This document shows, piece by piece, positions 9,036 through 37,365 of a stretch of 44,997 nt of DNA. A program made the translations under genes and the position numbers. Below the pieces are notes generated by a model that saw only the letters and a list, made by a program, of their open reading frames with translations, had not been told where the DNA came from and made no database searches. This DNA comes from an uncultured archaeon. Its GTDB lineage: Archaea; Nanohalarchaeota; Nanosalinia; Nanosalinales; Nanohalalkaliarchaeaceae. Every line of letters begins with the position of its first letter. Within the stretch, counting starts at the first letter, position 1. The stretch covers positions 1,543 through 46,539 of the forward strand of contig CAZTXA010000002.1 in assembly GCA_964617945.1 (NCBI GenBank). The letters run 5' to 3'.

Positions 9036-9324
9036 TGACAGCGGGGAAAAAGAGTGGGAACCGCGGCGTGGCAGGCGACGCCAGCGGGACAGTGGTCCGT
9101 GACCGTCCTCGCCGCCGCGACCCTCCGAACGCCGCCCACCACGGCTGAGGGCTGCTCCCGTCAAGGCCTGACCCGGTTCACCGCAGGGACGGCCCCGGAG
9201 GACGGCGGGTCGACGTCGGGACACGGGCTGTCCTGCCGGGACGCTGCGCCCCCGCGGCATCACCCCTGCTATCGAGGATTTGCAGTGGAGCCGTCCCCGA
9301 GGCGGCCGGGCTATCCCGCCTCAA
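9036..9324 (-). ncRNA. Signal recognition particle (7S/SRP) RNA; ends approximate
   Basis: The minus strand reads ...GGGUCAGGCCUUGACGGGAGCAGCCC... (plus coordinates 9150-9173). This matches the universal helix-8 pattern GG-UCAGG-stem-tetraloop-stem-AGCAG-CC of E. coli 4.5S RNA (GGUCAGGUCCGGAAGGAAGCAGCC). The region is about 280 nt, GC-rich, highly self-complementary and non-coding. TTTAAAA (9341-9347, minus strand) lies about 25 nt upstream of the proposed 5' end. A U-run (9047-9051) is near the 3' end. Confidence 0.7.
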
Positions 9325-9526: not shown

Positions 9527-9597
9527 GCCGGGGTGGCAGAGGAGCTATGCGACCGCCTGCAGAGCGGTTTACCCGGGTGCAAATCCCGGCCCCGGCT
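9527..9597 (+). tRNA. tRNA-Cys (anticodon GCA)
   Basis: Manual cloverleaf. Acceptor GCCGGGG/CCCCGGC is fully paired. Anticodon stem is ACCGC/GCGGT with loop CUGCAGA (GCA at positions 34-36). T arm is CCGGG-UGCAAAU-CCCGG. Discriminator is U. The short 3-bp D stem with a 13:22 mismatch is as in other tRNA-Cys. No encoded CCA. Confidence 0.9.
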
Positions 9598-9614
9598 CTT
9601 TCACAGGGTGGACG

Positions 9615-24087: not shown

Positions 24088-24591
24088 TTATGAGTCACCG
24101 TCCTTCTCGTCGTCCGCGTCCGGCTCCTCCTCTTCGTCTGCACCATCTTCATCGCTCTCCTCTTCCTCCGTGTCCTCTTCTGTCTCGTCCTCTACGTCTT
24201 CTTCCCCAGTGTCGTCGTCTGACTCCTCCTCGTCAGCGCCCTCATCTTCTACAGCTTCGTCGTCCTCTGCTTCACTATCCTCGTCTCCGTCCTCCTCTGT
24301 TTCTTCAGCCTCCTCTTCACCGTCTTCCTCTGCGTCGTCACCGTCCTCCGGCAGTTCCTCGAAGATCGGCTCGTCGTGGACGCGGACCGTCCCTCTCGAG
24401 ACGGAGAGGCCGGTGGAGGAATGGATGTTCGCGATCTCCACGGTCTTCGGGTCGAGATCGAGTTCGGCCGCGATCTTGTCCCGGACCGCTGCCGCGCTCG
24501 GCGTCGCCTCGCCGACATGGGAGATCTCGACAGTGATCTCTTCCCGGTCCATCAGTGCCTGCTCCTCCCGGTCAACCACTTCTAGTTCCAT
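24088..24591 (-). CDS. rps24e: Ribosomal protein S24e with a roughly 85-aa poly-acidic C-terminal extension
   Basis: The first 80 or so residues are a canonical S24e core (MELEVVDREEQALMDREEITVEISHVGEATPS...IHSSTGLSVSRGTVRVHDEP). They are followed by an uninterrupted D/E-rich tail. ATG 24591 overlaps the spt4 stop. Confidence 0.9.
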   Translation of the reverse strand: MELEVVDREEQALMDREEITVEISHVGEATPSAAAVRDKIAAELDLDPKTVEIANIHSSTGLSVSRGTVRVHDEPIFEELPEDGDDAEEDGEEEAEETEEDGDEDSEAEDDEAVEDEGADEEESDDDTGEEDVEDETEEDTEEEESDEDGADEEEEPDADDEKDGDS

Positions 24592-24782
24592 CACACGTTC
24601 ACCTGTACCGCGTACCGGCCCGGCGTCGACACCCCGATCTCCTCCGCGATGTCGGAGTCTTCCGGGTCGTAGATAACGACGAGTCCGCGCCAGTTCGACG
24701 TCAGTTCATCGTTCTTGCAGATGTCGCATTCGCTGCCGCTGTCGACGATCCGTTTGCAGTTTGTGCAGGCTCTATCAGCCAT
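24591..24782 (-). CDS. spt4: Transcription elongation factor Spt4 (RpoE'')
   Basis: Start trimmed to ATG 24782: MADRACTNCKRIV...CDICKNDELTSNWRGLVVIYDPEDSDIAEEIG. This is the zinc ribbon plus the NGN-binding motif typical of Spt4. ATGA overlap with the rpoE' stop. Confidence 0.85.
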   Translation of the reverse strand: MADRACTNCKRIVDSGSECDICKNDELTSNWRGLVVIYDPEDSDIAEEIGVSTPGRYAVQVNV

Positions 24783-26369: not shown

Positions 26370-26828
26370 TTAACCCATACCGAGTAACCGCCGGAGAAAT
26401 GCCAGTACCGATCCCCCGGTATTGCCGCGGACGCGTACAATCATCGTTGCCTCAGACCGTTTCCCTGTTGTATCCGAGGAGACACTGACCATGAACTGGG
26501 AGCTTCCTGCCTCCACCCCTTCGATATTGAACTCGAGGTCACGTTCCTCGCCGGGGTCGAGGATCACCTGACAGATATCCGTCTCCTCCGAGCAGTGCAC
26601 CCCGTCGGCGTCGCCAGGGAGATTGACATCCACGATCCCTGTCGAGACTGCCGGCCCGTTGAACTCCACGGACACCACATCCGCGACCTGTAACGGGTTC
26701 GACACTGACGCGGTGAGCGTGTCCTGCCCGCCGACAGTGATCTGTCGCGCGTCCTGCGCAGCTGCAGCGGTGAGCGCGATGAGAAGGACTGCCACGGCAA
26801 GCCCGAGGACGCCGGTCGCAGACCGCAT
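26370..26828 (-). CDS. Secreted/anchored small beta-rich protein, function unknown
   Basis: N-terminal signal-like segment MRSATGVLGLAVAVLLIALTAAAAQD, then a roughly 110-aa beta-strand-type sequence. TATA-like TATTTAAAC lies about 25 nt upstream of the ATG. Confidence 0.5.
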   Translation of the reverse strand: MRSATGVLGLAVAVLLIALTAAAAQDARQITVGGQDTLTASVSNPLQVADVVSVEFNGPAVSTGIVDVNLPGDADGVHCSEETDICQVILDPGEERDLEFNIEGVEAGSSQFMVSVSSDTTGKRSEATMIVRVRGNTGGSVLAFLRRLLGMG

Positions 26829-26872: not shown

Positions 26873-27925
26873 CTATCCCAGGTAGTCCTGGTTCACGGTC
26901 TCACAGGCGGTTATGTGGTTCTCTCGGCTGATAGCTGTCCCGGAGGAAACACTGTCAACATCGTCGAACCCGATCTTCCCCGTGTACAGCGCATCCGCCA
27001 CCGCGGGGTTCTCGGCGATCCGCCGGTAGCCCTGGAAATAGATGTGGTCCTTGACGAACCCGCCTGGCTGCGCCGTATCCGGTATCCCCCGTTTCACACG
27101 GTACGTCCGGATGTACGCTGCACGCCCGTCCAGCCCGAGGTCCCGCATCGCCTGGTACAGGTCGTGGAACCCGTCGCCGATACGGTCGACGGCGAGCACC
27201 CGCGCAGTGATCTTGGGCAGGGAAACGTGCAGTACGTCCATCGCCGCCTCGTTGAACGTTGCCAGTCCCTCCTCCGCGGCCTCGTATCCCGCGGTGCCGT
27301 ACATCAGTGCGGTCGTGCCGGTCGCGCGACCGTTCACAGCGCGGACGGCGTGCGTGGACTCGTGCACCAGCAACCGCTTCGCCCCGTCAACGGTGTACGA
27401 CTTGTCCTGTGGTACGAGGATGCGGGACTCGTGCGGACTGTTCCGGATGATCTCATTGTCGCCCATCGACGCCGCGTAGTCGACACCGAGCCGGTCGAAC
27501 AGTGCGTTGAACGCTTCCGTCACCACCTCGCTCTGGATAGATTCTGTGCCTGTATCGTCTGGCGGGGTGAACTGGTCCCGCGCCGCTGCGACGAGGTCAG
27601 TGGATGGCGACCCGTAGTGCTCCCCCGACATTGCTGTGAGTTCTCCCGTCCCGATCGCCGCTATCATGCGGTGCCGGGACCGCAGCCCCGCGACAAGGCG
27701 CTCCTCGAGAACGGTCTCTGCACTGTCCTCCAGCTCCGCCAGCGCTCCTGCGACCTCCTCGTCCTGGTCAAAGTCCCGGTACCGGTACGACGGCGTGTAC
27801 GTCCTCCCGTCTTCGACAGCGGCCATGAACTGCTCCCGCTCCTCCGCAGCATTCACCGGCTGCAGGTAGTGGTACAGGTCAAGCATCGCATCCAGGTCTG
27901 CGACAGTATCCTGCGGCAGCGCCAT
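26873..27925 (-). CDS. DUF1704-family metallopeptidase (QEGLA-motif / MATCAP-type gluzincin carboxypeptidase-like)
   Basis: 350 aa. Zinc motif LLVHESTHAVRAVNG, the downstream family motif AAEEGLATFNEA (QEGLA-like), and RVKRGIPD..GGFVKDHIYFQG. Confidence 0.75.
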   Translation of the reverse strand: MALPQDTVADLDAMLDLYHYLQPVNAAEEREQFMAAVEDGRTYTPSYRYRDFDQDEEVAGALAELEDSAETVLEERLVAGLRSRHRMIAAIGTGELTAMSGEHYGSPSTDLVAAARDQFTPPDDTGTESIQSEVVTEAFNALFDRLGVDYAASMGDNEIIRNSPHESRILVPQDKSYTVDGAKRLLVHESTHAVRAVNGRATGTTALMYGTAGYEAAEEGLATFNEAAMDVLHVSLPKITARVLAVDRIGDGFHDLYQAMRDLGLDGRAAYIRTYRVKRGIPDTAQPGGFVKDHIYFQGYRRIAENPAVADALYTGKIGFDDVDSVSSGTAISRENHITACETVNQDYLG

Positions 27926-27946
27926 ACACTACCTGTCAGGCCGGAG

Positions 27947-27957
27947 TTTACATAAAT
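27947..27957. promoter_or_regulatory. Shared bidirectional TATA-like element between the divergent DUF1704 and ATP-grasp genes
   Basis: TTTACATAAAT is centred at 27952, exactly 27 nt from ATG 27925 (minus strand) and 27 nt from GTG 27979 (plus strand). It is the only AT-rich element in the 53-nt spacer. Confidence 0.45.
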
Positions 27958-27978
27958 GGTCGGTCGCCACGTGTACGT

Positions 27979-28854
27979 GTGACGATGCGTATCGGTGTGG
28001 CAGGGACGGACCGGCAATATGAAGAGGAAGGGATCGTGGCGGAACTCGAGGACCGGGGGCATGACGCAGTGTTCATCGACCCCGCCGATGTCTCCTATCT
28101 CCTGACCGGCGGAGAACTGACGGTGCGGTACCGGGGGCAGAGCCTGAACGACCTCGACCTCCTGTACATGCGCCGCACCCGGTTCGACGTGGAGGCCAGC
28201 CGCGACCTCGTCGCCGCAGTCGACACGCTCGGCATCCCGACAGTGGAGAAGAAAGCGGTGTTCTTCAACCCGCTGTCAAAGTTCTACAGCCTGCTCAGCT
28301 TCGTCGGCGCAACAGTGGACGACGTGGAGATCCCGGCGACGGCAGTGGTCCGGGAGGAAGGAGAGGCGGGTCCGATCGCCGGCGCCATCAGCTATCCCTT
28401 GATCGTCAAACCTGTGAGCGGCCGTGAAGGAGAGGGCGTGACACGGATCGACGAACGGGAAGAACTCGAAGCCGCACTCGACGAGGCCGAATTCCCTGTG
28501 TTGCTGCAGGAATATATCGAGATCGAGGACGAATACCGCGTCCTTGTGGTCGGCGACGAACCGCTCGGCACCGCTGTAAAAAAGGCCGAGGAAGGAGCCG
28601 AGACCCGGAACTATGCGCAGGGGGCGGAGTTCGCGGCGGTCGACGCGCCTGCGGTCGAACGGGCCGCGGTCGCGATCGCTGACCTGATGGAGATAGAGGT
28701 CGCCGGCGTCGACATCGTGGAGGCGGCCGACGGCACCCTGTACGAGATCGAATGTAACCGCTGTCCACAGTTCGAAGGGTTCGCCGAGGCACACCCCGAT
28801 GTCGATGTGCCCGGCCGTATCGTCGACTACCTGGAGGGACGTGCCGGGACATAA
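27979..28854 (+). CDS. RimK-family ATP-grasp ligase (paralog 1)
   Basis: YPLIVKPVSGREGEGV (K plus Gly loop), LLQEYIE, DEYRVLVVG, RNYAQGAE, VAGVDIVE...LYEIECN. This is the full RimK/LysX-type motif set. The start is GTG 27979 or ATG 27985. Confidence 0.8.
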   Translation: MTMRIGVAGTDRQYEEEGIVAELEDRGHDAVFIDPADVSYLLTGGELTVRYRGQSLNDLDLLYMRRTRFDVEASRDLVAAVDTLGIPTVEKKAVFFNPLSKFYSLLSFVGATVDDVEIPATAVVREEGEAGPIAGAISYPLIVKPVSGREGEGVTRIDEREELEAALDEAEFPVLLQEYIEIEDEYRVLVVGDEPLGTAVKKAEEGAETRNYAQGAEFAAVDAPAVERAAVAIADLMEIEVAGVDIVEAADGTLYEIECNRCPQFEGFAEAHPDVDVPGRIVDYLEGRAGT

Positions 28855-28873
28855 TCCCGGGGCAGTGGTGGAT

Positions 28874-29935
28874 ATGGCTGGAAAGGAGAAGCGACGCCTT
28901 GTCTCGTTCAAGATCTGGGACAGGGACGATCAACGGACAGAACACCACGTCCTGGAGGAATACGTCGTGGAGGGTGCAGGCGATGGCCCACACGTCGTCT
29001 GTGTCTCCGGTTCTCACGGCGACGAACTCCTTGCGATCGATGCCGCAAAACGGGTGTACCGCGAGCTCGACCCTGAAGACGTGGACGGAACGGTCTCGTT
29101 CATCCCCGAAGCGAACATGTTCGCGGTCGCGAAGGGAACCCGGGAGACGCCGGTCCCGGAAGTGGAGATATACGAGGACGAGGAACGCAACCTGAACCGG
29201 TGCTTCAGCAACGTCGACCTCGACGAAGAACCTGGTGGGAACATCACGGAACGCCTCGCCTATCACATCCTCGACCTGGTCGTCTCTGCGGACTACTGTC
29301 TGGACCTGCATACTGCGACCGCGCCAGGCTACAAGGTGGACCAGATCCGCGAAAAAGCAGACCGGCACGTGGACGCGGAGGTCCGCAGCGAGCAGGAGAA
29401 CCTTGTGCGGAACGCCGGCGTCCCGTACATCCTCCGAACCTCCACCGACACGATCGGGAGGGGCGTGCTGTCCGGGGTCGCACCGCGGCACGGCGTCCCA
29501 GCGGTCACGGTCGAGATCGGCGGTGGGATGTATACGCCGACAGAACTCGACGAATACGTCGACGTGATACAGAACCTGCTGATCACTGCCGGCGTCATCG
29601 ACGGCGACCGGACGACCGGTGAGCAGCAGGTGTACCAGGAGCTGGTGAAGATATCTGCACCGACCGCCGGCGAATATAGGAAGGCCGCGCCGCCCGGCGA
29701 GACCGTCTCCCGCGGCGATGTCATCGGCCAGATCGAGAACGATTCCGGTGTGCACGAGGTGGTAAGCCCTGTCGACGGCCTGGTGGAGTCGGTGCACCAG
29801 AAGGACTGGGTGAACGAGGGTACGAAACTCGGCCACATCGCGGTCCCGGAAGATACAGGGATGGTGGCAGACCTTGTCAGAGCCCTCTCTCGGACGCTCG
29901 ACGGGTTGCTTGCGCGTGCACGTACTCCATCATGA
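28874..29935 (+). CDS. Succinylglutamate desuccinylase/aspartoacylase-family (AstE/AspA, M14-like) zinc hydrolase
   Basis: Start trimmed to ATG 28874. Zinc ligand motifs VSGSHGDE (HxxE) and YCLDLHTA (third His), NLNRCF, plus a C-terminal beta-domain (GDVIGQIEN...VSPVDGLV). Confidence 0.75.
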   Translation: MAGKEKRRLVSFKIWDRDDQRTEHHVLEEYVVEGAGDGPHVVCVSGSHGDELLAIDAAKRVYRELDPEDVDGTVSFIPEANMFAVAKGTRETPVPEVEIYEDEERNLNRCFSNVDLDEEPGGNITERLAYHILDLVVSADYCLDLHTATAPGYKVDQIREKADRHVDAEVRSEQENLVRNAGVPYILRTSTDTIGRGVLSGVAPRHGVPAVTVEIGGGMYTPTELDEYVDVIQNLLITAGVIDGDRTTGEQQVYQELVKISAPTAGEYRKAAPPGETVSRGDVIGQIENDSGVHEVVSPVDGLVESVHQKDWVNEGTKLGHIAVPEDTGMVADLVRALSRTLDGLLARARTPS

Positions 29936-30770
29936 CCGCCGGGAGATCGGCGCCGACCGCCTCCTGCGTCTCCGCAGGGACGCCGGGCGACATGTTAAGC
30001 TCGATCACATACGCGTCCTCCTCTGTCTGGATCATGTCGACCCCGCAGATATCGAAACCGGCCAGGTGCGCTGCTGTTACCGCGGCCTCCCGCACCTCCT
30101 CGGGCGCGTCATACTCCTGACGGTTCGCCCCCTGCGACACGTTTGACCGCCACTCCTCCTCCCCGGTCGCCACCCGCTTGTATGAATAGGTCTTGTCCCC
30201 TACCACGATCACCCGGATGTCCTCACCCGGATGGTCGACGAACTCCTGCAGGCATACATCCTGCTCGAACAGGGTCAGCGTGTCCACGAACGGGCCGAGA
30301 TCAGACGCTGTCGATGCCCGCATCACGCCTTCACCGCCGTACCCGGAGATGAGTTTGATGACGACAGGGTATCCGAAGTCTTCTGCGCCCCGCTTCGTCT
30401 CCTCGGTCGACAGCACATACGCTGACCGTGGAACACTGACGCCGCCGTCTGCCAGTACTTTCATCGCGTAGAACTTGTTGGACGCGATGGTCAGCGAGTC
30501 GGGATCCACCTGCGTGTACACGCCGTTGTCGATAAGGATCTCCGGGATTTCCTCGCTGAACAGCATATCGCTCCCGAATACACGGATGAACGCGGCGTCG
30601 AACTCCGACAGGTCAGTATTCCCGTATTTTATCGTGGCCCCGTCCTCGGTGTCCACCATCCGGGTACCGGTGACGGGGACGGCCGTGACCGTGTCGAAAT
30701 ACTGTTCAGCGGCCTCGATAAACAGGTCGTGCTGGGTAGACGTCTCGCCGTACAGGATGCAGAGATCCAT
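29877..30770 (-). CDS. RimK-family ATP-grasp ligase (paralog 2)
   Basis: YPVVIKLISGYGGEGV, CLQEFVD, EDIRVIVVG, WRSNVSQGA, ICGVDMIQ...YVIELNMSPG. The 3' end overlaps the convergent AstE/AspA-like gene by 59 nt. Confidence 0.85.
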   Translation of the reverse strand: MDLCILYGETSTQHDLFIEAAEQYFDTVTAVPVTGTRMVDTEDGATIKYGNTDLSEFDAAFIRVFGSDMLFSEEIPEILIDNGVYTQVDPDSLTIASNKFYAMKVLADGGVSVPRSAYVLSTEETKRGAEDFGYPVVIKLISGYGGEGVMRASTASDLGPFVDTLTLFEQDVCLQEFVDHPGEDIRVIVVGDKTYSYKRVATGEEEWRSNVSQGANRQEYDAPEEVREAAVTAAHLAGFDICGVDMIQTEEDAYVIELNMSPGVPAETQEAVGADLPAVMMEYVHAQATRRASERGL

Positions 30771-30773
30771 AGG

Positions 30774-31583
30774 TCAGTCCTCCAGCATCTCGGCCACGTT
30801 TCCGTACACGTTTTTACCGCTGACCTCGTGGAACCGTTCCAGGTCCGGGTCGAGCGCCGCGTCCACCACGGTGTCCCCGACCAGGCGGACCCGGCAGATA
30901 TCGGCGCCGATCGAGGTGGCGGCCTCGACCACTACCTCCTCCAGCTCCGAGGAGATGGAGTGGTAGGACTCGCTCGCGTCGCCGCTCCGTTTCCGCCACC
31001 CCTCTCCTTCCAGGCTGAGCGAGACGACGGTGCCGTCGATGTAGAGGCAGTCGTACACATCCCCCTCGACCTTCTCCTGGAGCACGAGGAAGTGGTCGCC
31101 GTGATCAAGGTGTTCCGCGAACGATGACAGCTCGTCCTCGGATTCCAGGAGGCTCATATCCCGCCGCTCGAACCCCTCGAACTTCTTCCCGATCAACGGG
31201 TAGGACAGGTCTTCCTCTAGCCCTGACACACCGTTCTCTGTTGACACGGTCGCGGTCGGTGGGATCGGAACGTCACGCTCCGACAGGACGTGGTAGAGAT
31301 AGCTCTTCTTCGCGAGGATGAAGAACGCTGTCGGACCGATGTTCGTCGTGATATCGCGGTCGATCAGTGTCTCCAGGAGGACGCGGGAGAAGATCGCGAT
31401 CCGTGTGTTCGGCGCCAGGTACAGCGCGTCGTAGGAATCTACCGGCTCCCCGTCGACGAGGACCTCTGTCTCCTCTCCCGCAACGATCCGTGTGTCGGCG
31501 ACGGACGCCTGGTCGACCGTATCGATATGTTCCTGCAACCGGTCGACGAGCGTGTCGTCGTCAGTTATCGTCAGAAGGTTCAT
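30774..31583 (-). CDS. Divergent RimK-like ATP-grasp paralog (paralog 3), probably catalytically degenerate
   Basis: Same length and collinear with paralog 2 (YPLIGKKFEGFERRDM; LVLQEKVEG; ICRVRLVGD...VVDAALDPD). The Gly-rich loop and the E-x-N Mg/ATP ligand motif are not conserved. The start overlaps the upstream gene by 23 nt, and the stop lies 3 nt from the paralog 2 ATG. Confidence 0.55.
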   Translation of the reverse strand: MNLLTITDDDTLVDRLQEHIDTVDQASVADTRIVAGEETEVLVDGEPVDSYDALYLAPNTRIAIFSRVLLETLIDRDITTNIGPTAFFILAKKSYLYHVLSERDVPIPPTATVSTENGVSGLEEDLSYPLIGKKFEGFERRDMSLLESEDELSSFAEHLDHGDHFLVLQEKVEGDVYDCLYIDGTVVSLSLEGEGWRKRSGDASESYHSISSELEEVVVEAATSIGADICRVRLVGDTVVDAALDPDLERFHEVSGKNVYGNVAEMLED

Positions 31584-33132
31584 CCTCTTCCCCCGTGCCG
31601 TTCCCGTTCGGCTGCCACATCGTCGTGACCGCGTCCCCTGTTTCCTCCGCCCGCCACCCCTCCATGAAATCCTCGACGACGTTCGGGACCACCTGTTTGA
31701 GGACGTCTCCCTGCCGCAGGATCTTGCTCAGCTGTACCTCCAGGTTCTTGCTCAACTGCCTGTACAGTGACAGGTTGGCATATACCAGTTCGTTCTTGAT
31801 ACGCCAGAAACTCGTGGTGCCCCGCGGCGCCAGCACGATATATCCGCCGCCGTCGGTGGCAGTGATCGCGTTCTGCATCTCCGACGCTTCCACGTAGTAC
31901 ACGCCGCCGGCCCCGTTTGTTTCGGGGTCCACGACCAGTAGTTCGTCTCCCTCGACAGCGACCACGAGGACGTACCGCTCCGTCTCCGACCCGGGGAACA
32001 GCACCTCCTTGTCCAGGTAGGGGATGAGCAGTGCCTCGTTATCCAGCCACACCTTCGCCTCTGTCCCCAGTTCGGTGATCTTTCCACCTTCCACAAACCC
32101 GTACCGGAGTTCACCGCCGGCCATTGACTCCAGGACGGTGCCGAGTTCGTCCGGCGTCGGATGGGTGTCGTCCAGTTCCTCGCTGATATCGCCCTGTGTC
32201 GCGTCGAACCCGAACATCGTGAGCGCCATCTCCCCCGCCGCTGCACCCCGGTATTCCGACTGTTCGGAGACGAAATATTCCGTGATCTCTGCCAGCGTAT
32301 CGACATCGGCGGCCACCCGTTTGAACAGGATTTCACGGTCCATCAGGTTCTTGTTCGGGGACAGGAGGAAATACCCGGAATCCGTGTTTATCGTGGTGCT
32401 GAACGTCGAGGTCTCCCTGATTTCGCCGGTCTCATCGTCCAGCTTGATACGTTTCCCCGGTTTCAACACGTCAGAGCCGCGGAGATAGATGCCTGCGGCG
32501 TAGTTCTGGATCAGGTCCTTGAACCCGAAGAACCCGAGCAGTACAAGGAGCAGGACGATACCGTAGGACGCGGCCGTGACCGTTGTGTCGATGATGTGGG
32601 TTGACACGCCGAGCTGGATGATGGCGATCTCCAGCACCACAAAGTAGAGGAACAGTTTGATACCGGTCAGGAACCCGTCCAGTACCTTCGGTGACACCCC
32701 GACCGTCCGGGCCTGCCGCTTCACGTTCAGGTTCTCTATGAACCCGCGGATCAACGCTATAACGCCTTTGACAAGGATTATACCGAGGATGAACAGGAGT
32801 GCGGCTGTGATGACGCGCGGCGCGTACCCCACGATGCGGCGGCTGAGCTGTCCGACGGCGGACGCATTGATATATATCGTGGCGGTGACCAGCGTCAGCA
32901 CGACGACCGCGTATTCGACCACTCTGTCAGGCGACCGGCCGCGTCGCCGGACCCGTTCGACAGGGGTGCCACGCTGTGCAGCGGCTTCAACAAGGTACCG
33001 GACGAGCTGACCGGCCAGCCGGGCGAGGACGATCCCGCCGCCCAGTATCAGTGCTGTGACCGCTATCTTCACCCCGATATTCTGCTGAATAAGCGCGAGA
33101 GCGGCGCTCTCGAGCTGAGAAACCACTACCAT
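31561..33132 (-). CDS. MscS-family mechanosensitive channel fused to a C-terminal cysteine-free peptidase-C39-like domain
   Basis: The N-terminal half has TM helices and an MscS TM3/beta-domain signature (FGFKDLIQNYAAGIYLRGSDVLKPGKRIKL...GEIRE...LLSPNKNLMD). The C-terminal region resembles papain-like C39 domains (EQSEYRGAAAGEMALTMFGFD...RYVLVVAVEGDELLVVDPETN...YIVLAP). The whole 523-aa protein contains no Cys. Confidence 0.7.
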   Translation of the reverse strand: MVVVSQLESAALALIQQNIGVKIAVTALILGGGIVLARLAGQLVRYLVEAAAQRGTPVERVRRRGRSPDRVVEYAVVVLTLVTATIYINASAVGQLSRRIVGYAPRVITAALLFILGIILVKGVIALIRGFIENLNVKRQARTVGVSPKVLDGFLTGIKLFLYFVVLEIAIIQLGVSTHIIDTTVTAASYGIVLLLVLLGFFGFKDLIQNYAAGIYLRGSDVLKPGKRIKLDDETGEIRETSTFSTTINTDSGYFLLSPNKNLMDREILFKRVAADVDTLAEITEYFVSEQSEYRGAAAGEMALTMFGFDATQGDISEELDDTHPTPDELGTVLESMAGGELRYGFVEGGKITELGTEAKVWLDNEALLIPYLDKEVLFPGSETERYVLVVAVEGDELLVVDPETNGAGGVYYVEASEMQNAITATDGGGYIVLAPRGTTSFWRIKNELVYANLSLYRQLSKNLEVQLSKILRQGDVLKQVVPNVVEDFMEGWRAEETGDAVTTMWQPNGNGTGEEDEPSDDN

Positions 33133-33241: not shown

Positions 33242-34459
33242 TTACACGATGGTGCCGGCGCCGATCAGCCGCCACCGCGACCCCATACGTCGGGAAACCG
33301 CCACAGTATCGCCTTCTTCGGCGCATACCGGCCGTTTCAGCTGGACGGTGATGGTGGACCCTGCCTCGGTGACCGCTCCAGAACTCTTCCCTGTGCCGAC
33401 GTTCAACAGGAGCGGCTCGCTCTCCGCTATCGGGTCCACTGTCTGTTCCTCCTCGCTCCCCACTACCGCGTCCATCAGGTCGACCTCGATCTCCAGCTCC
33501 TCACGGACCGGTGGGAGTTCGCCTTTCCGCCCCAGGATATTGCCTGCCAGGTTATCGGACTTTGTCAGCGATGGGTCGAGCCCTGTTTCAACGCCGAGCA
33601 ACCCGCCGGGCCGGCCTTTTTCCACCTGGTTCTGGCCGTGGATGATGCTCCGTGCCTCCGTCTCGACTGGCTCCCAGCTCCCGTCACGTTCATATCCAGG
33701 TTTCAGCGCGATCTCGTCGCCGACCTCGATCTCGCCGCGCTGCAGGCTGCCGCCGACCACGCCGCCCTGCAGGGCCGCCGGCTCGGTGCCGGGCTTGTTG
33801 ATGTCGAAGGAACGGGCGACGAGCATCTTCGGTGCCGCGTCCGCGTCCCGCTCCGGCGTCGGGATATGCTCCTCCACCGCGTCGAGCAGCACGTCGATAT
33901 TGGTCCGGTGCTGTGCCGATATCGGGACGATAGGTGCGTCCTCCGCGACGGTGCCCTCGGTGAACGCTTTGATCTGCTCATAATTTTCCCGTGCCGCTTC
34001 CTCGTCCACCAGGTCGATCTTGTTCTGCACCACGACGATGTTCTCGATACCGACCCGTTCCATGGCCGCAAGGTGTTCCCGTGTCTGCGGCTGTGGCACC
34101 TCCTCGTCCGCCGCAACCAGCAGGAGGGCGCCGTCCATGATAGCGGCGCCGGACAGCACGTTCGCCATCAGTGTCTCGTGCCCCGGGGCGTCCACCAGCG
34201 ACACGCTCCGCACCACCTCAGCATCCTCCCCGCACTCGCTGCACTCCTCCTCGACCGTGTACCGGTCGCAGTCGCTGCAGTACCGGACGGTCACGTCCGC
34301 ATACCCGAGCCGGATCGTGATCCCCCGCCGCAGTTCCTCAGAATGCGTATCCGTCCACTCACCACTGAGCGCGTCGGTCAGCGTGGTCTTCCCGTGGTCG
34401 ACGTGGCCGACGAGCCCGATGTTTGCCTCCGGTACAGGGACGTCCCCCACCGTGACCAC
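33242..34459 (-). CDS. eif2g: Translation initiation factor aIF2 gamma subunit
   Basis: [15 protein letters not shown], zinc knuckle CSDCDRY...CSECG, DAPGHE, NKIDL. Confidence 0.95.
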
Positions 34460-34939
34460 CTACGCCTCGTCCTCCGCGTCGTCCTCAGGTTTATCGTCGT
34501 CCTCGCTGGAATCTTCGTCTGTCTCGGCATCGTCTTCGCTTCCAGCGTCGTCCGCGTCTTCCCCGTCCGGTCCTTCACCGAGCAGTGTCGCGACGTCCTC
34601 GCTCCCCTCCTCGACCACCGACAGGTTGACCTGCGCGATCTGCTGGGAGACCGTGTTGCCGCGGACAGATATCCGTGTCCGCTCCCCGTCGTCAAGGTCG
34701 CGGGCGCCTGTCCCGCCGTCCAGGAGCAGCCGTTTCCGGCCTGTCCCGTCGACACCGGGGCGCATCGGGAAGCCTTCCGTATCGCTGCCGCCCGTGATCC
34801 GGAGCGTGTACCCGTCAAGGCCGACCAGCGATCCTTCCACCTCGTCGCCGATGCTACGCCCTGTCAGGCGCTGTGCCTGTTGGTCCGTGAGTTCGATCTG
34901 AAAACTTTCGCCGTCCGTCGTTCCGATAACCGCGTCCAT
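34460..34939 (-). CDS. rps6e: Ribosomal protein S6e with acidic C-terminal extension
   Basis: GYTLRITGGSDTEGFPMRPGV...GERTRISVRGN is the canonical S6e core. The last 40 or so residues are D/E-rich (..GEDADDAGSEDDAETDEDSSEDDDKPEDDAEDEA). It abuts the aIF2-gamma start. Confidence 0.9.
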   Translation of the reverse strand: MDAVIGTTDGESFQIELTDQQAQRLTGRSIGDEVEGSLVGLDGYTLRITGGSDTEGFPMRPGVDGTGRKRLLLDGGTGARDLDDGERTRISVRGNTVSQQIAQVNLSVVEEGSEDVATLLGEGPDGEDADDAGSEDDAETDEDSSEDDDKPEDDAEDEA

Positions 34940-35066
34940 GTTGTATTCACCTGCTCAGTCACCGCGTAGCGGGTTCCGAGCAGTCCTCCCTTACCGCACC
35001 AACCTTTTAAATCGTGTTCGCCGCGGTGAACGTAATTATTTAAGCCGGGCGGCCGGACGGAGACGT

Positions 35067-35924
35067 ATGGCGGTACTGGGACAGGTGCTGGAACAGGCAT
35101 GGCAGCAGATCCTGGCATTCTTGCAGGCGGAGACTGCGGCCCGCCCCAGACTGTTCGCCGTCCTCGTCCTCCTCATCCTCGGGTTCGTCGGCGGCCGGAT
35201 CATCGCGGAGATGGTCCGTACCCTGCTCAAAATGACGGCGCTGGACGACCTTGCGGTCAAGGCGGATATCCAGCCCATGGTCAGGCAGCTCGGGTTCCGC
35301 GGAACGATGTCAGATTTTATCGCGGTCATGGTCAAATGGCTCATCTACATCCTGGCGGTCCTGTCGGTGCTGTACGTGTTCGGGTTCCAGTTCGCCGCGG
35401 AATACTCTACTATCCTGGTGAACTGGGGGACGCGCATCGTCCTGGCCGCCGCGGTGATGCTCCTGGGAGCGGTGATCGCGTCGCAGCTGGAGGAGCTGAC
35501 GGTGCACCTGTTCCGGGTGAGCAGGTTTACAGGACTGGTTGACGAATCCGGTGCGGAAATCCCGGTGTACGTCATCGCCGGGAAGGCGGTGAAATATCTC
35601 GGCCTCCTGGTGACGTTCCTCGTCGCCCTCGGCGTGGCCGGGATAGACCTCCTCATATTGAACGTATTGGTGGTGATGCTTGCGCTCGGCGTCATCGCTG
35701 CACTGGTGATCGGGACACGTGACCTCGTCCGCAATATCGCAGTCTCAGTATACTTCCAGCTGTCACGCGTATTCGGTGCAGGCGACCGGATCAGTGTCGG
35801 AGAATATACGGGCGAGGTAGCGGGGATCCGCCCGATGTACACCAAGCTCGAGGACGGTGGCACCGTATTCTACGTGCCGAACTGGAAGCTCGCGACCGAG
35901 GTCATCGAACAGGAGGAGGAATAG
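35067..35924 (+). CDS. MscS-like mechanosensitive channel family protein (TM-helix repeats + beta domain)
   Basis: Start trimmed to ATG 35067. Repeated TM-helix modules, then RDLVRNIAVSVYFQLSRVFGAGDRISVGEYTGEVAGI...VPNWKLA (MscS TM3/beta-domain pattern). It ends in ...IEQEEE. TATA-like ATTATTTAAG lies about 25 nt upstream. Confidence 0.65.
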   Translation: MAVLGQVLEQAWQQILAFLQAETAARPRLFAVLVLLILGFVGGRIIAEMVRTLLKMTALDDLAVKADIQPMVRQLGFRGTMSDFIAVMVKWLIYILAVLSVLYVFGFQFAAEYSTILVNWGTRIVLAAAVMLLGAVIASQLEELTVHLFRVSRFTGLVDESGAEIPVYVIAGKAVKYLGLLVTFLVALGVAGIDLLILNVLVVMLALGVIAALVIGTRDLVRNIAVSVYFQLSRVFGAGDRISVGEYTGEVAGIRPMYTKLEDGGTVFYVPNWKLATEVIEQEEE

Positions 35925-35925
35925 G

Positions 35926-37365
35926 ATGCGGTGGACGGTGGTTAACTATTACACCGGCGTATTCCTCCGGATTTTCTCGGCGCTGTTACTGGCCCCGGTC
36001 GTGGTCGGAAAGTATTACGGTGAGAGCTTCGTCCAGCTCGAACCATTCCTGATCGCGTCGTTCACTGCGATCACGTTCGGCTGGGCGCTGTCCCGCACCG
36101 GGAACGAGGCGCGGCCGGAGCCGGTGGAGGCGATGGCCACGGCGACAGCGTCCTGGCTGCTCGCTGTCGGACTGGCCGCCATCCCGCTCGCCACGCTCGC
36201 CGACATCTCGTTCATGAACGCCTACTTCGAGGCGATGTCCGGGATGACAACGACGGGCATGTCGATGCTGTCCACAGGTGAACTCCCCAGGTCGCTCCTG
36301 TTCTGGCGGTCGTTCATGCAGTGGGTCGGCGGGCTCGGCATCCTCACATTCTTCGTCGCGGTCCTGGTGGAGTCTGGCGGTGTCGCCCGGAAACTGGTGG
36401 ATACAGAGTCGAACAAGATCGCAGGCGCCAGCGTCCGCGCCTCCCTGTTCAACTCGATCAAATCACTGTGGTACGTATACATCGTCCTCACCGCCGTCGA
36501 AATCGTTTTACTGGTGCACTTCGGGTTCCCGTCGTTCGAGGCGGTCACCCACTCGATGTCGACCCTCCCGACCGGCGGGTTCGCGTCCGTCCCCGACCTC
36601 GGTGCATTGATGAACCCTGGGGCGAAGGCGACCATCACCCTGTTCATGTTCCTCGGCGGCACCAACTTCCTCCTTATCTACAGCGTTATGCGCGGGAACA
36701 TCCGCCGCATGGTGAACGACTTCGAGTTCCGTCTGTACCTGTCGATAACGGTGCTGGCATTCCTCTTCGTTGCCGCAGATCTGATCCTGTCCACCGGCCA
36801 GGCGGTGCCTGAGGCGATAGGGACAGCTGGCTTCCACGTGCCCTCGGTGATAAGCTCGACAGGATTCGAGCTCGAACCGGTACGGTCGTTCCCGGACGTG
36901 TCACGGTTCCTGTTCCTCGTGATGATGTTCATCGGCGGCTCACTCGGGTCGACGACCGGCGGGTTCAAGATGATGCGGATCGGTATCATGGCAAAACTTG
37001 TAGCGCAGCAGATACGGTCGCTCGGTATCCCGCGGACGGTGGTCAACCCGGTCACAGTCGGGGGGAACATCCTCGGAGACGATGAGATACGGCAGGTCTC
37101 CGCCATCCTGTTCCTGTGGCTCGTCGCTGTCGTTGCAGGGGGGGCGGTGACGGTCGGCCTCACCCAGTACGGGATTACAGAGTCGATACAGCTGATGACC
37201 TCGTCCGTGGGGACCATGGGACCGACATTCATCCCCCAGGCCGAACTGGCCGGACTCCCGCCGCTGGTCAAGGTCTCGCTGATGGTAGGTATGCTCGCGG
37301 GCCGCCTAGAAATGCTGCCGCTGCTCAGCATCCTGAACATCCGTCTCGTCCAGAAATTTGCTTAG
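35926..37365 (+). CDS. trkH: Trk-type K+ uptake system membrane subunit TrkH
   Basis: Start trimmed to ATG 35926, 1 nt after the preceding stop. It has the repeated M1-P-M2 selectivity-filter-like motifs MTTTGMS, LPTGGF, VISSTGFE and GSLGSTTGGFK. Confidence 0.9.
   Translation: MRWTVVNYYTGVFLRIFSALLLAPVVVGKYYGESFVQLEPFLIASFTAITFGWALSRTGNEARPEPVEAMATATASWLLAVGLAAIPLATLADISFMNAYFEAMSGMTTTGMSMLSTGELPRSLLFWRSFMQWVGGLGILTFFVAVLVESGGVARKLVDTESNKIAGASVRASLFNSIKSLWYVYIVLTAVEIVLLVHFGFPSFEAVTHSMSTLPTGGFASVPDLGALMNPGAKATITLFMFLGGTNFLLIYSVMRGNIRRMVNDFEFRLYLSITVLAFLFVAADLILSTGQAVPEAIGTAGFHVPSVISSTGFELEPVRSFPDVSRFLFLVMMFIGGSLGSTTGGFKMMRIGIMAKLVAQQIRSLGIPRTVVNPVTVGGNILGDDEIRQVSAILFLWLVAVVAGGAVTVGLTQYGITESIQLMTSSVGTMGPTFIPQAELAGLPPLVKVSLMVGMLAGRLEMLPLLSILNIRLVQKFA

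Follow-up and report, generated by a model that had tools for sequence, protein, structure and literature searches.

What are RimK-like ligases, zinc hydrolases and a membrane channel doing side by side in the small genome of a salt-loving archaeon? The question is raised by a 44,997-nucleotide stretch of DNA (hereafter the window; contig CAZTXA010000002.1, positions 1,543 to 46,539) from a GC-rich nanohaloarchaeon of the family Nanohalalkaliarchaeaceae, in which an initial annotation described six contiguous genes, here named A to F, as a candidate island for writing and erasing acidic peptide tails. All six open reading frames (ORFs) were verified at the coordinates listed below. Comparison with related genomes divides them differently from that description: F, E and D form an invariant three-gene core, kept by almost all salt-loving nano-archaea, while A, B and C are the accessory module of one lineage.

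26873–27925, minus strand: gene A, 350 amino acids (aa), MATCAP/DUF1704 gluzincin metallopeptidase; accessory
27979–28854, plus strand: gene B, 289–291 aa, second intact RimK-family ligase; accessory
28874–29935, plus strand: gene C, 353 aa, AstE/AspA-family zinc hydrolase; accessory
29877–30770, minus strand: gene D, 297 aa, intact RimK-family ATP-grasp ligase; core
30774–31583, minus strand: gene E, 269 aa, dead RimK paralog (pseudo-ATP-grasp); core
31561–33132, minus strand: gene F, 523 aa, MscS-family membrane protein with a C39/papain-like domain; core
31783–32283, minus strand: C39/papain-like domain of F

To place these genes in a wider context, GTDB species representatives were scanned with an alignment of F, yielding 59 loci, nearly all labelled as Nanohaloarchaea or other DPANN lineages, and the ORFs of each locus were classified against the window proteins and the extra families that were met. 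Source annotations assign the orthologs of A, B and F to Candidatus Nanohaloarchaea, with metagenome-assembled genomes (MAGs) of the Danakil ‘Asbonarchaeaceae’ as the nearest relatives. In every locus with enough sequence, F, E and D stood in the same order on one strand, with one outlier, a locus labelled Micrarchaeota (L065, 9836–12234), in which F with an intact catalytic triad is followed directly by D, without E; this arrangement may be the pre-duplication state. Because the trio is retained in at least 50 species-level genomes of about 1 Mb, it is probably important to these organisms. Since F-E-D is invariant and the block past D is variable, the six genes amount to a core plus an accessory module. 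The proposal that the genes form a functional unit thus stands for F-E-D, which co-occur in every informative locus; the full set of six occurs in only about eight species, and the idea of a single conserved six-gene island had to be given up, A, B and C being replaced elsewhere by other ligases and hydrolases.

The block past D in these eight or so species is of the window type, C-B-A. Other types comprise a DTBS/CbiA-like P-loop protein, either alone, with C, or with a YheCD/TTL-like ATP-grasp protein (Pfam TTL, 40.6 bits), and a GCS2/YbdK-type carboxylate-amine ligase (about 12 species), with or without a YheCD/TTL-like ligase. In some lineages a member of a second, distant MATCAP-like family, with HExxH and EEGG retained, stands head-to-head with one to three YheCD/TTL-like ligases, and some loci have nothing past D. 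Every accessory gene is an amidoligase or an amidohydrolase. The coupling of a ligase with a carboxypeptidase-type enzyme, a central element of the earlier proposal, recurs independently with two ligase families: as B with A, and as YheCD/TTL-like ligases with the second MATCAP-like family. In a locus of Ca. Nanohalalkaliarchaeum (L013, 12366–18186), the block is reordered as B, A, a second D-like ligase and C, giving three intact RimK-type ligases in addition to E.

F has about five transmembrane helices (aa 1–205), the pore helix motif NYAAGIYL, a beta-domain (aa 206–270) and, where the usual alpha-beta domain would be, a C39/papain-like domain (aa ~284–450), followed in the AlphaFold2 model by two helices and a disordered acidic tail. 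The pore-lining helix and beta-domain that define MscS proteins are both present (MS_channel_2nd, PF00924, 26.9 bits against a cut-off of 20.2; MS_channel_1st_1, PF05552, a conserved transmembrane helix, 25 bits against 22; Foldseek matches to MscS at E about 1e-6), and the canonical alpha-beta domain and C-terminal barrel vestibule are missing. In Foldseek searches with the model, whose predicted local distance difference test score is 81–90 over aa 300–450, the N-terminal half matched MscS and the C-terminal half a papain-like fold, namely Alr0975 (target template-modelling score 0.61) and the peptidase domains of PCAT1 (0.62) and ComA (0.71–0.74). Pfam C39 and C39_2 gave no match to window F, either whole or as its C-terminal half; F orthologs at 42–57% identity scored 29–46 bits on Peptidase_C39_2 (PF13529, cut-off 24), and one scored 34.3 bits on PF03412. 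Fold and ortholog matches together uphold the original view of F as an MscS channel carrying a C39-like domain, and the window copy of F contains no cysteine.

Active-site states were read from alignments with 33 and about 55 orthologs. Most orthologs keep Gln-x5-Cys, His and Asp, with a His-Asp spacing of 16 residues, which we take to be that of ComA. Window F has Glu in place of Gln290, Arg295 (32248–32250) at the Cys position and Arg386 (31975–31977) at the His position, and retains Asp402 (31927–31929). On these residues, the papain-like domain is predicted to be catalytically disabled in this lineage. The ‘dead peptidase domain’ of the initial annotation is accordingly correct for the window copy, with both Cys and His changed to Arg, and incorrect for the family, in which 32 species have the intact Gln/Cys/His/Asp set. 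The domain keeps its invariant columns after inactivation, and such conservation beyond the loss of catalysis implies that a binding role may be retained; HlyB likewise has a dead C39-like domain with a binding role. From the positive-inside pattern and homology to MscS, the domain should face the cytoplasm.

The state of the F triad was compared with the content of the accessory block in those species whose triad could be read and whose sequence ran at least 3 kb past D, considering a context of ±10 kb. None of the 32 species with an intact triad had a MATCAP-like neighbour; where the triad was broken, 13 species had such a neighbour and two had none (Fisher's exact test, p = 7.5e-10, uncorrected for phylogeny). 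Conversely, Cys, His or both have been lost from F in each of the 13 species with a MATCAP-like neighbour, the window among them. On a neighbour-joining tree of F, triad losses fall in at least three clades, one carrying A and two the other MATCAP-like family. This pattern points to functional replacement of the F peptidase by a MATCAP-like enzyme, and its simplest reading would be that a peptidase activity is indispensable and can come either from F, in cis, or from a MATCAP-like enzyme, in trans. One further locus (L057) combines a broken triad with a D whose Mg-ligand and RSN motifs are degenerate, has no accessory genes, and may be a decaying system.

For the hydrolases, the domain assignments made at the outset, a DUF1704 metallopeptidase and an AstE/AspA zinc hydrolase, hold. 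A matches PF08014 at 98.6 bits (cut-off 27) and has the gluzincin HExxH, as HESTH, and the EEGLA glutamate, both conserved among its orthologs; its best match in the PDB is human MATCAP (7z5g, E 8.5e-8), and on the bacterial QEGLA equivalog (TIGR02421) it reaches 109 of the 338.65 bits needed. We propose that A replaces the Cys peptidase activity that F has lost. Distant DUF1704 homologs outside Nanohaloarchaea (P0020) had no ligase neighbours. C matches AstE_AspA_cat (PF24827, 81.5 bits against 25), with zinc-ligand motifs HGDE at aa 48 and a later His in DLHTAT, and ends in a barrel-sandwich (biotin/lipoyl-like) domain. Its PDB matches are 3cdx, 2qj8 and DoeB (6twl), and it falls short of the DoeB (62.9 against 402.7 bits) and aspartoacylase equivalogs. 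C also adjoins cores with intact F triads and shows no relation to triad state.

Turning to the ligases, Pfam RimK (PF08443, cut-off 21) matched D at 105.5 and B at 74.2 bits, and E at only 16.2 bits, under the cut-off; E scored 31.8 bits on the LysX hidden Markov model (HMM). On rimK_fam (TIGR00768, cut-off 143.4), D was just under the threshold (141.8) and B clearly under it (114.2). The best PDB matches of D were the RimK structures 7qyr, 5zct and 4iwx (82 bits), followed by LysX at about 70 bits. Equivalog scores of D were 131.5 for MptN (cut-off 350), 105.5 for LysX (275.6), 96.4 for the S6 ligase NF007764 (331) and 67.3 for CofF (300); those of B were 90.3, 81.8, 66.6 and 42.6 in the same order, all under cut-off. 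A library of 1.84 billion representatives contained 20 sequences matching D at E < 1e-30, and the 40 nearest other relatives scanned were all generic RimK-family proteins with the S6 ligase model as best equivalog match, none reaching MptN, LysX or CofF level. Because of these scores and the generic RimK character of D's relatives, D and B are placed outside the MptN, CofF and LysX clades, contrary to the placement that the initial annotation had named as its refutation.

Inspection of the ATP-grasp motifs (Lys and Gly-rich loop, RSN..GG, and Asp/Glu/Asn Mg ligands) confirmed two motif-complete ligases and one degenerate paralog. The full set is present in 59 of 60 D orthologs, and in the window copy and all eight aligned orthologs of B. 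Aligned to RimK (7qyr), E shows neither the Gly-rich loop nor the RSN motif nor the Mg ligands. These losses recur in 59 of 59 aligned E orthologs, yet the protein is well conserved (41–70% identity to the window copy in the loci compared), and for these two reasons E is read as an ancient, maintained pseudo-enzyme and not as a product of recent decay. It is probably a non-catalytic partner or adaptor of D.

B occurs only alongside A in the surveyed loci, and its closest relatives outside nanohaloarchaea are bacterial RimK proteins at 25–32% identity. Many of these relatives (for example P0101, P0115, P0129 and P0131) are fused to other domains, frequently TrkA_C, the C-terminal RCK domain that regulates K+ transport, and in others a RimB-type protease (PF05618); the TrkA_C fusions are another hint tying RimK-type ligases to K+ or osmotic control. 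The sole intermediate homolog (P0100, 38% identity; L070, 2527–7175) has as cluster neighbours two further ATP-grasp genes and those for RNase J, a radical-SAM enzyme and a Gp77-like protein. This context may be viral or mobile, and the cluster, being unrelated to F-E-D, was rejected as a related system.

The core genes also appear to be coupled in translation. In each of five gene-called loci that were checked, the first 23 nt of E lie within F, and in a sixth the overlap is 14 nt. In several lineages the last ~10 codons of F contain both a GGAGGTGA-type Shine-Dalgarno motif and the ATG of E, a dual-coding end seen in L001, L008, L012, L013, L015 and L019; in the window (31561–31620) the motif is weaker and the F tail is degenerate (GEEDEPSDDN). 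Read from the sequence, this embedded Shine-Dalgarno and start codon would be a signature of F-E translational coupling. It also bears on the F tail motif GGDxKLDEFTD, which was considered as a substrate tail and rejected: the motif is dual-coded with the Shine-Dalgarno and start of E, which explains its conservation, and is therefore not independent evidence for a substrate tail.

We tentatively favour, at a probability of roughly 0.4, an ATP-driven cycle that adds and removes residues on short acidic Glu-type peptides at the cytoplasmic face of the channel, probably tied to glutamate/K+ osmotic balance. D, with E as its non-catalytic partner, would spend ATP to ligate Glu-type residues onto a carboxyl-terminated acceptor at the channel, and a peptidase would then trim the chains, in most species the Cys-His-Asp domain of F. 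In the window lineage, the F domain, minus Cys and His, would keep only binding, with trimming moved to the MATCAP-like A, and a second ligase (B) and an AstE/AspA hydrolase (C) would have been gained. The cycle might serve to control glutamate/K+ osmotic and charge balance as well as what the channel senses or vents. Gene content, co-occurrence, motif states and fold are shown by the data; that the monomer is Glu, that the proteins form a complex, that the acceptor is mainly free peptide and that the cycle has an osmotic role is what we infer. Short free acidic peptides are favoured as the acceptor because MscS-type channels vent K+ glutamate and other small solutes, because several accessory families normally act on small molecules, and because the cluster holds no acceptor gene. 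A further reason is that RimK produces free poly-alpha-glutamate, and its partner protease RimB trims the product and stimulates synthesis (PMC11957791). The locus lies, moreover, beside a second MscS gene and TrkH.

Several points weigh against the free-peptide cycle. The choice of Glu would follow from family membership, and D scores just under rimK_fam and far under the equivalogs. The peptidase exchange represents about three independent events and was scored over ±10 kb of context, not whole genomes. We know of no role for an MscS-type pore with peptides, and Nanohaloarchaea, as ‘salt-in’ organisms, may have no need of organic osmolytes. The position of the operon inside a translation/transcription array, finally, fits a protein target equally well.

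That last point leads to reversible C-terminal tailing of a protein, in which residues put on by D, B and the TTL-like ligases would be taken off again by the F domain, A and C. The target would be either the acidic disordered tail of F, with an effect on gating, or a translation component encoded nearby. The best-studied RimK, TTL and MATCAP members do act on acidic protein tails (PMC11957791), and no carrier or precursor gene fits in the cluster, so that a protein acceptor would have to be F, E or D or be encoded elsewhere. F ends in a disordered acidic tail, with EEEE or EDEE at the end in some species, and the operon follows S6e-eIF2gamma on the same strand in nearly all species. Tailing is thus a serious rival of the free-peptide cycle, yet we hold it unlikely: S6 and LysW have a fixed Glu acceptor, whereas the residue at which F ends differs widely (E, N, S, K, R, G, Q, I); the GGDxKLDEFTD motif is accounted for by dual coding; the AstE/AspA, YbdK/GCS2 and DTBS-like P-loop families usually act on small molecules; and in so small a genome the nearness of translation genes reflects conserved synteny, which the soda-lake clade does not share. 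A more specific form, a channel ‘tail code’, is quite unlikely in our estimate. Here D/E, joined in some lineages by B or the TTL-like ligases, would reversibly polyglutamylate the tails of a heptameric F or a plug peptide held by the C39 domain. Erasure of these marks, by the Cys peptidase in cis or by a MATCAP-like carboxypeptidase, would set gating or permeation. If true, it would be an archaeal writer/eraser acting on a channel and a prokaryotic antecedent of the TTL/MATCAP pairing.

The same proteins could instead make a product for release. The ligases would assemble a variable non-ribosomal peptide or acidic polymer, which the C39-like domain would recruit (and, if intact, process) and the pore would let out, for instance at a host interface. 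C39 domains of ATP-binding cassette (ABC) exporters do recruit cargo, whether active (PCAT1, ComA) or dead (HlyB); the F domain stays conserved after loss of catalysis; and the ligase set shifts fast between lineages, as is typical of variable products. Export is made distinctly doubtful, however, by the passive nature of an MscS pore and the lack of any energising module (no ABC domain) in F, by hydrolases that all lack signal peptides and would destroy the product in the cytoplasm, and by the absence of a precursor gene and of a double-glycine leader. A gamma-glutamyl thiol or phytochelatin-like metabolism, with GCS2 and GshB-like ligases making a peptide that the F domain processes and with Kef-like gating, draws on the top fold match of F, a phytochelatin-synthase-like enzyme of Nostoc with a glutathione acyl intermediate (2bu3, E 1.4e-6), on one F ortholog at 24.3 bits on Pfam Phytochelatin (cut-off 24.9), on the GCS2/YbdK-type ligase past D in about 12 species and on the 36.9 bits of D on GSH-S_ATP. 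It is very unlikely all the same, as D and B match RimK models far better than glutathione-synthase models, the window clade and most others have no GCS2, the 16-residue His-Asp spacing is, by count from the alignment, that of C39 (ComA) and not of phytochelatin synthase, and ComA peptidase domains give equal or better target template-modelling scores (0.71–0.74). It is extremely improbable, finally, that ordinary cofactor-tailing (MptN, CofF) or LysX/ArgX genes lie beside a channel by chance. MptN is indeed the top equivalog model for D (131.5 bits) and LysX the next (105.5), but these scores are far under the cut-offs (350 and 275.6, with 300 for CofF), and the 40 nearest relatives of D, none at MptN, LysX or CofF level, match the S6 ligase model best. 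No locus has a LysW-like carrier or a LysY/Z/J/K gene, a small carrier ORF would not fit, and the gene overlaps, kept in about 50 species, speak for a unit with F.

Returning to the favoured cycle of ligation and trimming, the F-E-D system is an analogue of RimK/RimB and of RloABC and a member of neither, because equivalog thresholds fail and no retropepsin, 7-transmembrane (7-TM) transglutaminase protein or ABC module is present. It shares with RimK/RimB (RimABK) of Pseudomonas and E. coli the pairing of a RimK-family ligase with a peptidase that undoes its additions, and synthesis of free poly-alpha-glutamate by RimK is modulated by the peptidase (PMC11957791, PMC4741518). Here, in contrast, the peptidases are papain-like, MATCAP-like or AstE/AspA and not retropepsins, the dead ligase paralog and the channel are obligatory, and D and B remain at 96 and 67 bits against the S6 ligase equivalog cut-off of 331. 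To our knowledge, archaea are without bS6. The rloABC genes of Pseudomonas aeruginosa, which have a hypo-osmotic stress phenotype, encode a RimK-like ATP-grasp protein, a membrane protein with an inactive papain-superfamily (transglutaminase) domain and a polyglutamate-cleaving peptidase (PMC11957051), the same three-part logic as that of the nanohaloarchaeal system. RloABC, however, has no pseudo-ligase, and its protease is a retropepsin that is secreted. Where the archaeal system has an MscS channel bearing a C39-like domain in the cytoplasm, RloABC has a 7-TM protein whose domain is periplasmic. Searches of Pfam, NCBIfam and PDB sequences matched F to no RloB-type 7TM/transglutaminase family and A to no retropepsin; the resemblance is one of analogy, not membership.

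Among the enzymes of tubulin tails (TTL/TTLL with MATCAP/TMCP and CCP), which are acidic, ATP-grasp ligases are likewise accompanied by zinc carboxypeptidases, both MATCAP-family and M14-related. The alignment of A to human MATCAP includes HExxH and EEGLA, and other nanohaloarchaea have a TTL-like ligase head-to-head with a MATCAP-like gene. There is no tubulin-like target, and the window ligases are RimK-like, not TTL-like. The C39 domains of PCAT1, ComA and HlyB resemble that of F as Gln/Cys/His/Asp papain-like domains on the cytoplasmic side of a membrane conduit, with both active and naturally dead versions; F differs in being fused to a passive MscS-type channel, in having no gene for a leader-peptide substrate and, in the window, in falling under every Pfam threshold for C39. 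With MscS and the glutamate-exporting MscCG of Corynebacterium, F shares the conserved pore helix and beta-domain; it departs from the family in lacking the alpha-beta domain and barrel and in having five transmembrane helices, a peptidase-like domain and an operon in common with ligases. Small acidic N-acyl dipeptides are the substrates of RIMKLA/B ligases and aspartoacylase in mammalian N-acetylaspartylglutamate and N-acetylaspartate metabolism, and this combination of a RimK-like ligase with an AstE/AspA-family hydrolase may serve as a lead for a small-molecule substrate.

The kind of system is therefore known, namely ligase-plus-peptidase ‘amidoligase’ modules, and the new elements are the channel fusion, the fixed pseudo-ligase and the cis/trans peptidase exchange. 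In the literature searched, an incomplete collection, we found no MscS-C39 fusion, no RimK with DUF1704 and no RimK in Nanohaloarchaea, nor any characterised archaeal system of such composition, in agreement with the initial annotation. The paper on the window's family (10.1101/2023.07.03.547478) makes no mention of RimK, glutamate ligase or peptidase, and the part of it dealing with mechanosensitive channels concerns a different family. A mechanosensitive-type channel, a fused peptidase domain and a ligase with a fixed pseudo-enzyme partner form a combination not seen before. The alternation between a Cys peptidase in cis and a MATCAP-like enzyme in trans suggests a concrete, testable function for prokaryotic DUF1704/MATCAP proteins and offers a natural experiment on pseudo-enzyme evolution. 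Should the product be oligo-glutamate, the system would give ‘salt-in’ extremophiles a new way to maintain osmotic and charge homeostasis; should the channel tail be the target, it would be the first enzymatically written code on a prokaryotic channel.

The layout of the window locus is as compact as first described. F and E overlap by 23 nt (31561–31583), with the start of E inside the end of F, E and D are separated by 3 nt (30771–30773), and the convergent C and D overlap by 59 nt (29877–29935). The start of B is probably ATG 27985 and not 27979 as given earlier, because the database copy of B has 289 aa. Two AT-rich, TATA-like boxes were read from the sequence, the first of them being the one reported in the initial annotation:

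27947–27957, no strand assigned: TTTACATAAAT, in the 53-nt divergent spacer between A and B, about 22 and 28 nt from the two start codons
33161–33170, minus strand: TTATTTAAAT, 29–38 nt upstream of the F start codon

The former could plausibly be common to both leaderless transcripts, of A and of B, and the latter is a candidate promoter of the F-E-D operon. GC content stays level along the island, on which ground a signal of horizontal transfer was rejected. Rfam and tRNA scans found nothing within the island, and PADLOC anti-phage defence models gave no matches among the six proteins. All six proteins are acidic by charge and isoelectric point, as are the neighbouring proteins, which makes this property uninformative.

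In nearly all nanohaloarchaea, F-E-D lies between the eIF2gamma and PIN/RpoE' genes (33242–37365 in the window; loci L001–L066), on the same strand as eIF2gamma and 30–100 nt past it, within an array of conserved translation and transcription genes. Across S6e from the operon lies TrkH, accompanied in some loci by an adjacent 285-aa MscS paralog. The flanks in the soda-lake clade hold no eIF2gamma, S6e, PIN or RpoE'; in the sole gene-called soda-lake locus (L007), the operon is divergent from S12-S7 and next to S12-S7-EF2-EF1a. A link to CDC123, the eukaryotic ATP-grasp protein that binds eIF2gamma, was considered and rejected: there was no D123 Pfam match and only weak R2K matches for B, and the adjacency is synteny. 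The typical array, TrkH-S6e-eIF2gamma-F-E-D-...-PIN-RpoE', also appears on a contig labelled as the bacterium Colwellia polaris (L051, JBLGBK010000004.1), where the MAG label is probably wrong or the contig mis-binned.

Among the neighbouring genes of the window, those for ribosomal proteins S24e (24088–24594, minus strand, 168 aa) and S6e (34460–34939, minus strand, 159 aa) encode long acidic C-terminal extensions; in other nanohaloarchaea the two proteins are shorter (134–145 and 123–133 aa). Tail length has no clear correlation with the A-B-C module, L002 having the module and short tails. The interval from the PIN gene to A encodes a 152-aa protein (26370–26828, minus strand) that begins with a signal or anchor sequence. 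This protein is present in L001 and L004 and absent in L002, has a weak, sub-threshold match to Transglut_C, and is probably not part of the system. Elsewhere in the window (9123–9203, minus strand, and 9527–9598, plus strand), a short match to the model of the bacterial small signal recognition particle (SRP) RNA, at 44 bits and so just over the gathering score, was seen near a tRNA-Cys gene; it probably reflects the conserved core of the archaeal SRP RNA.

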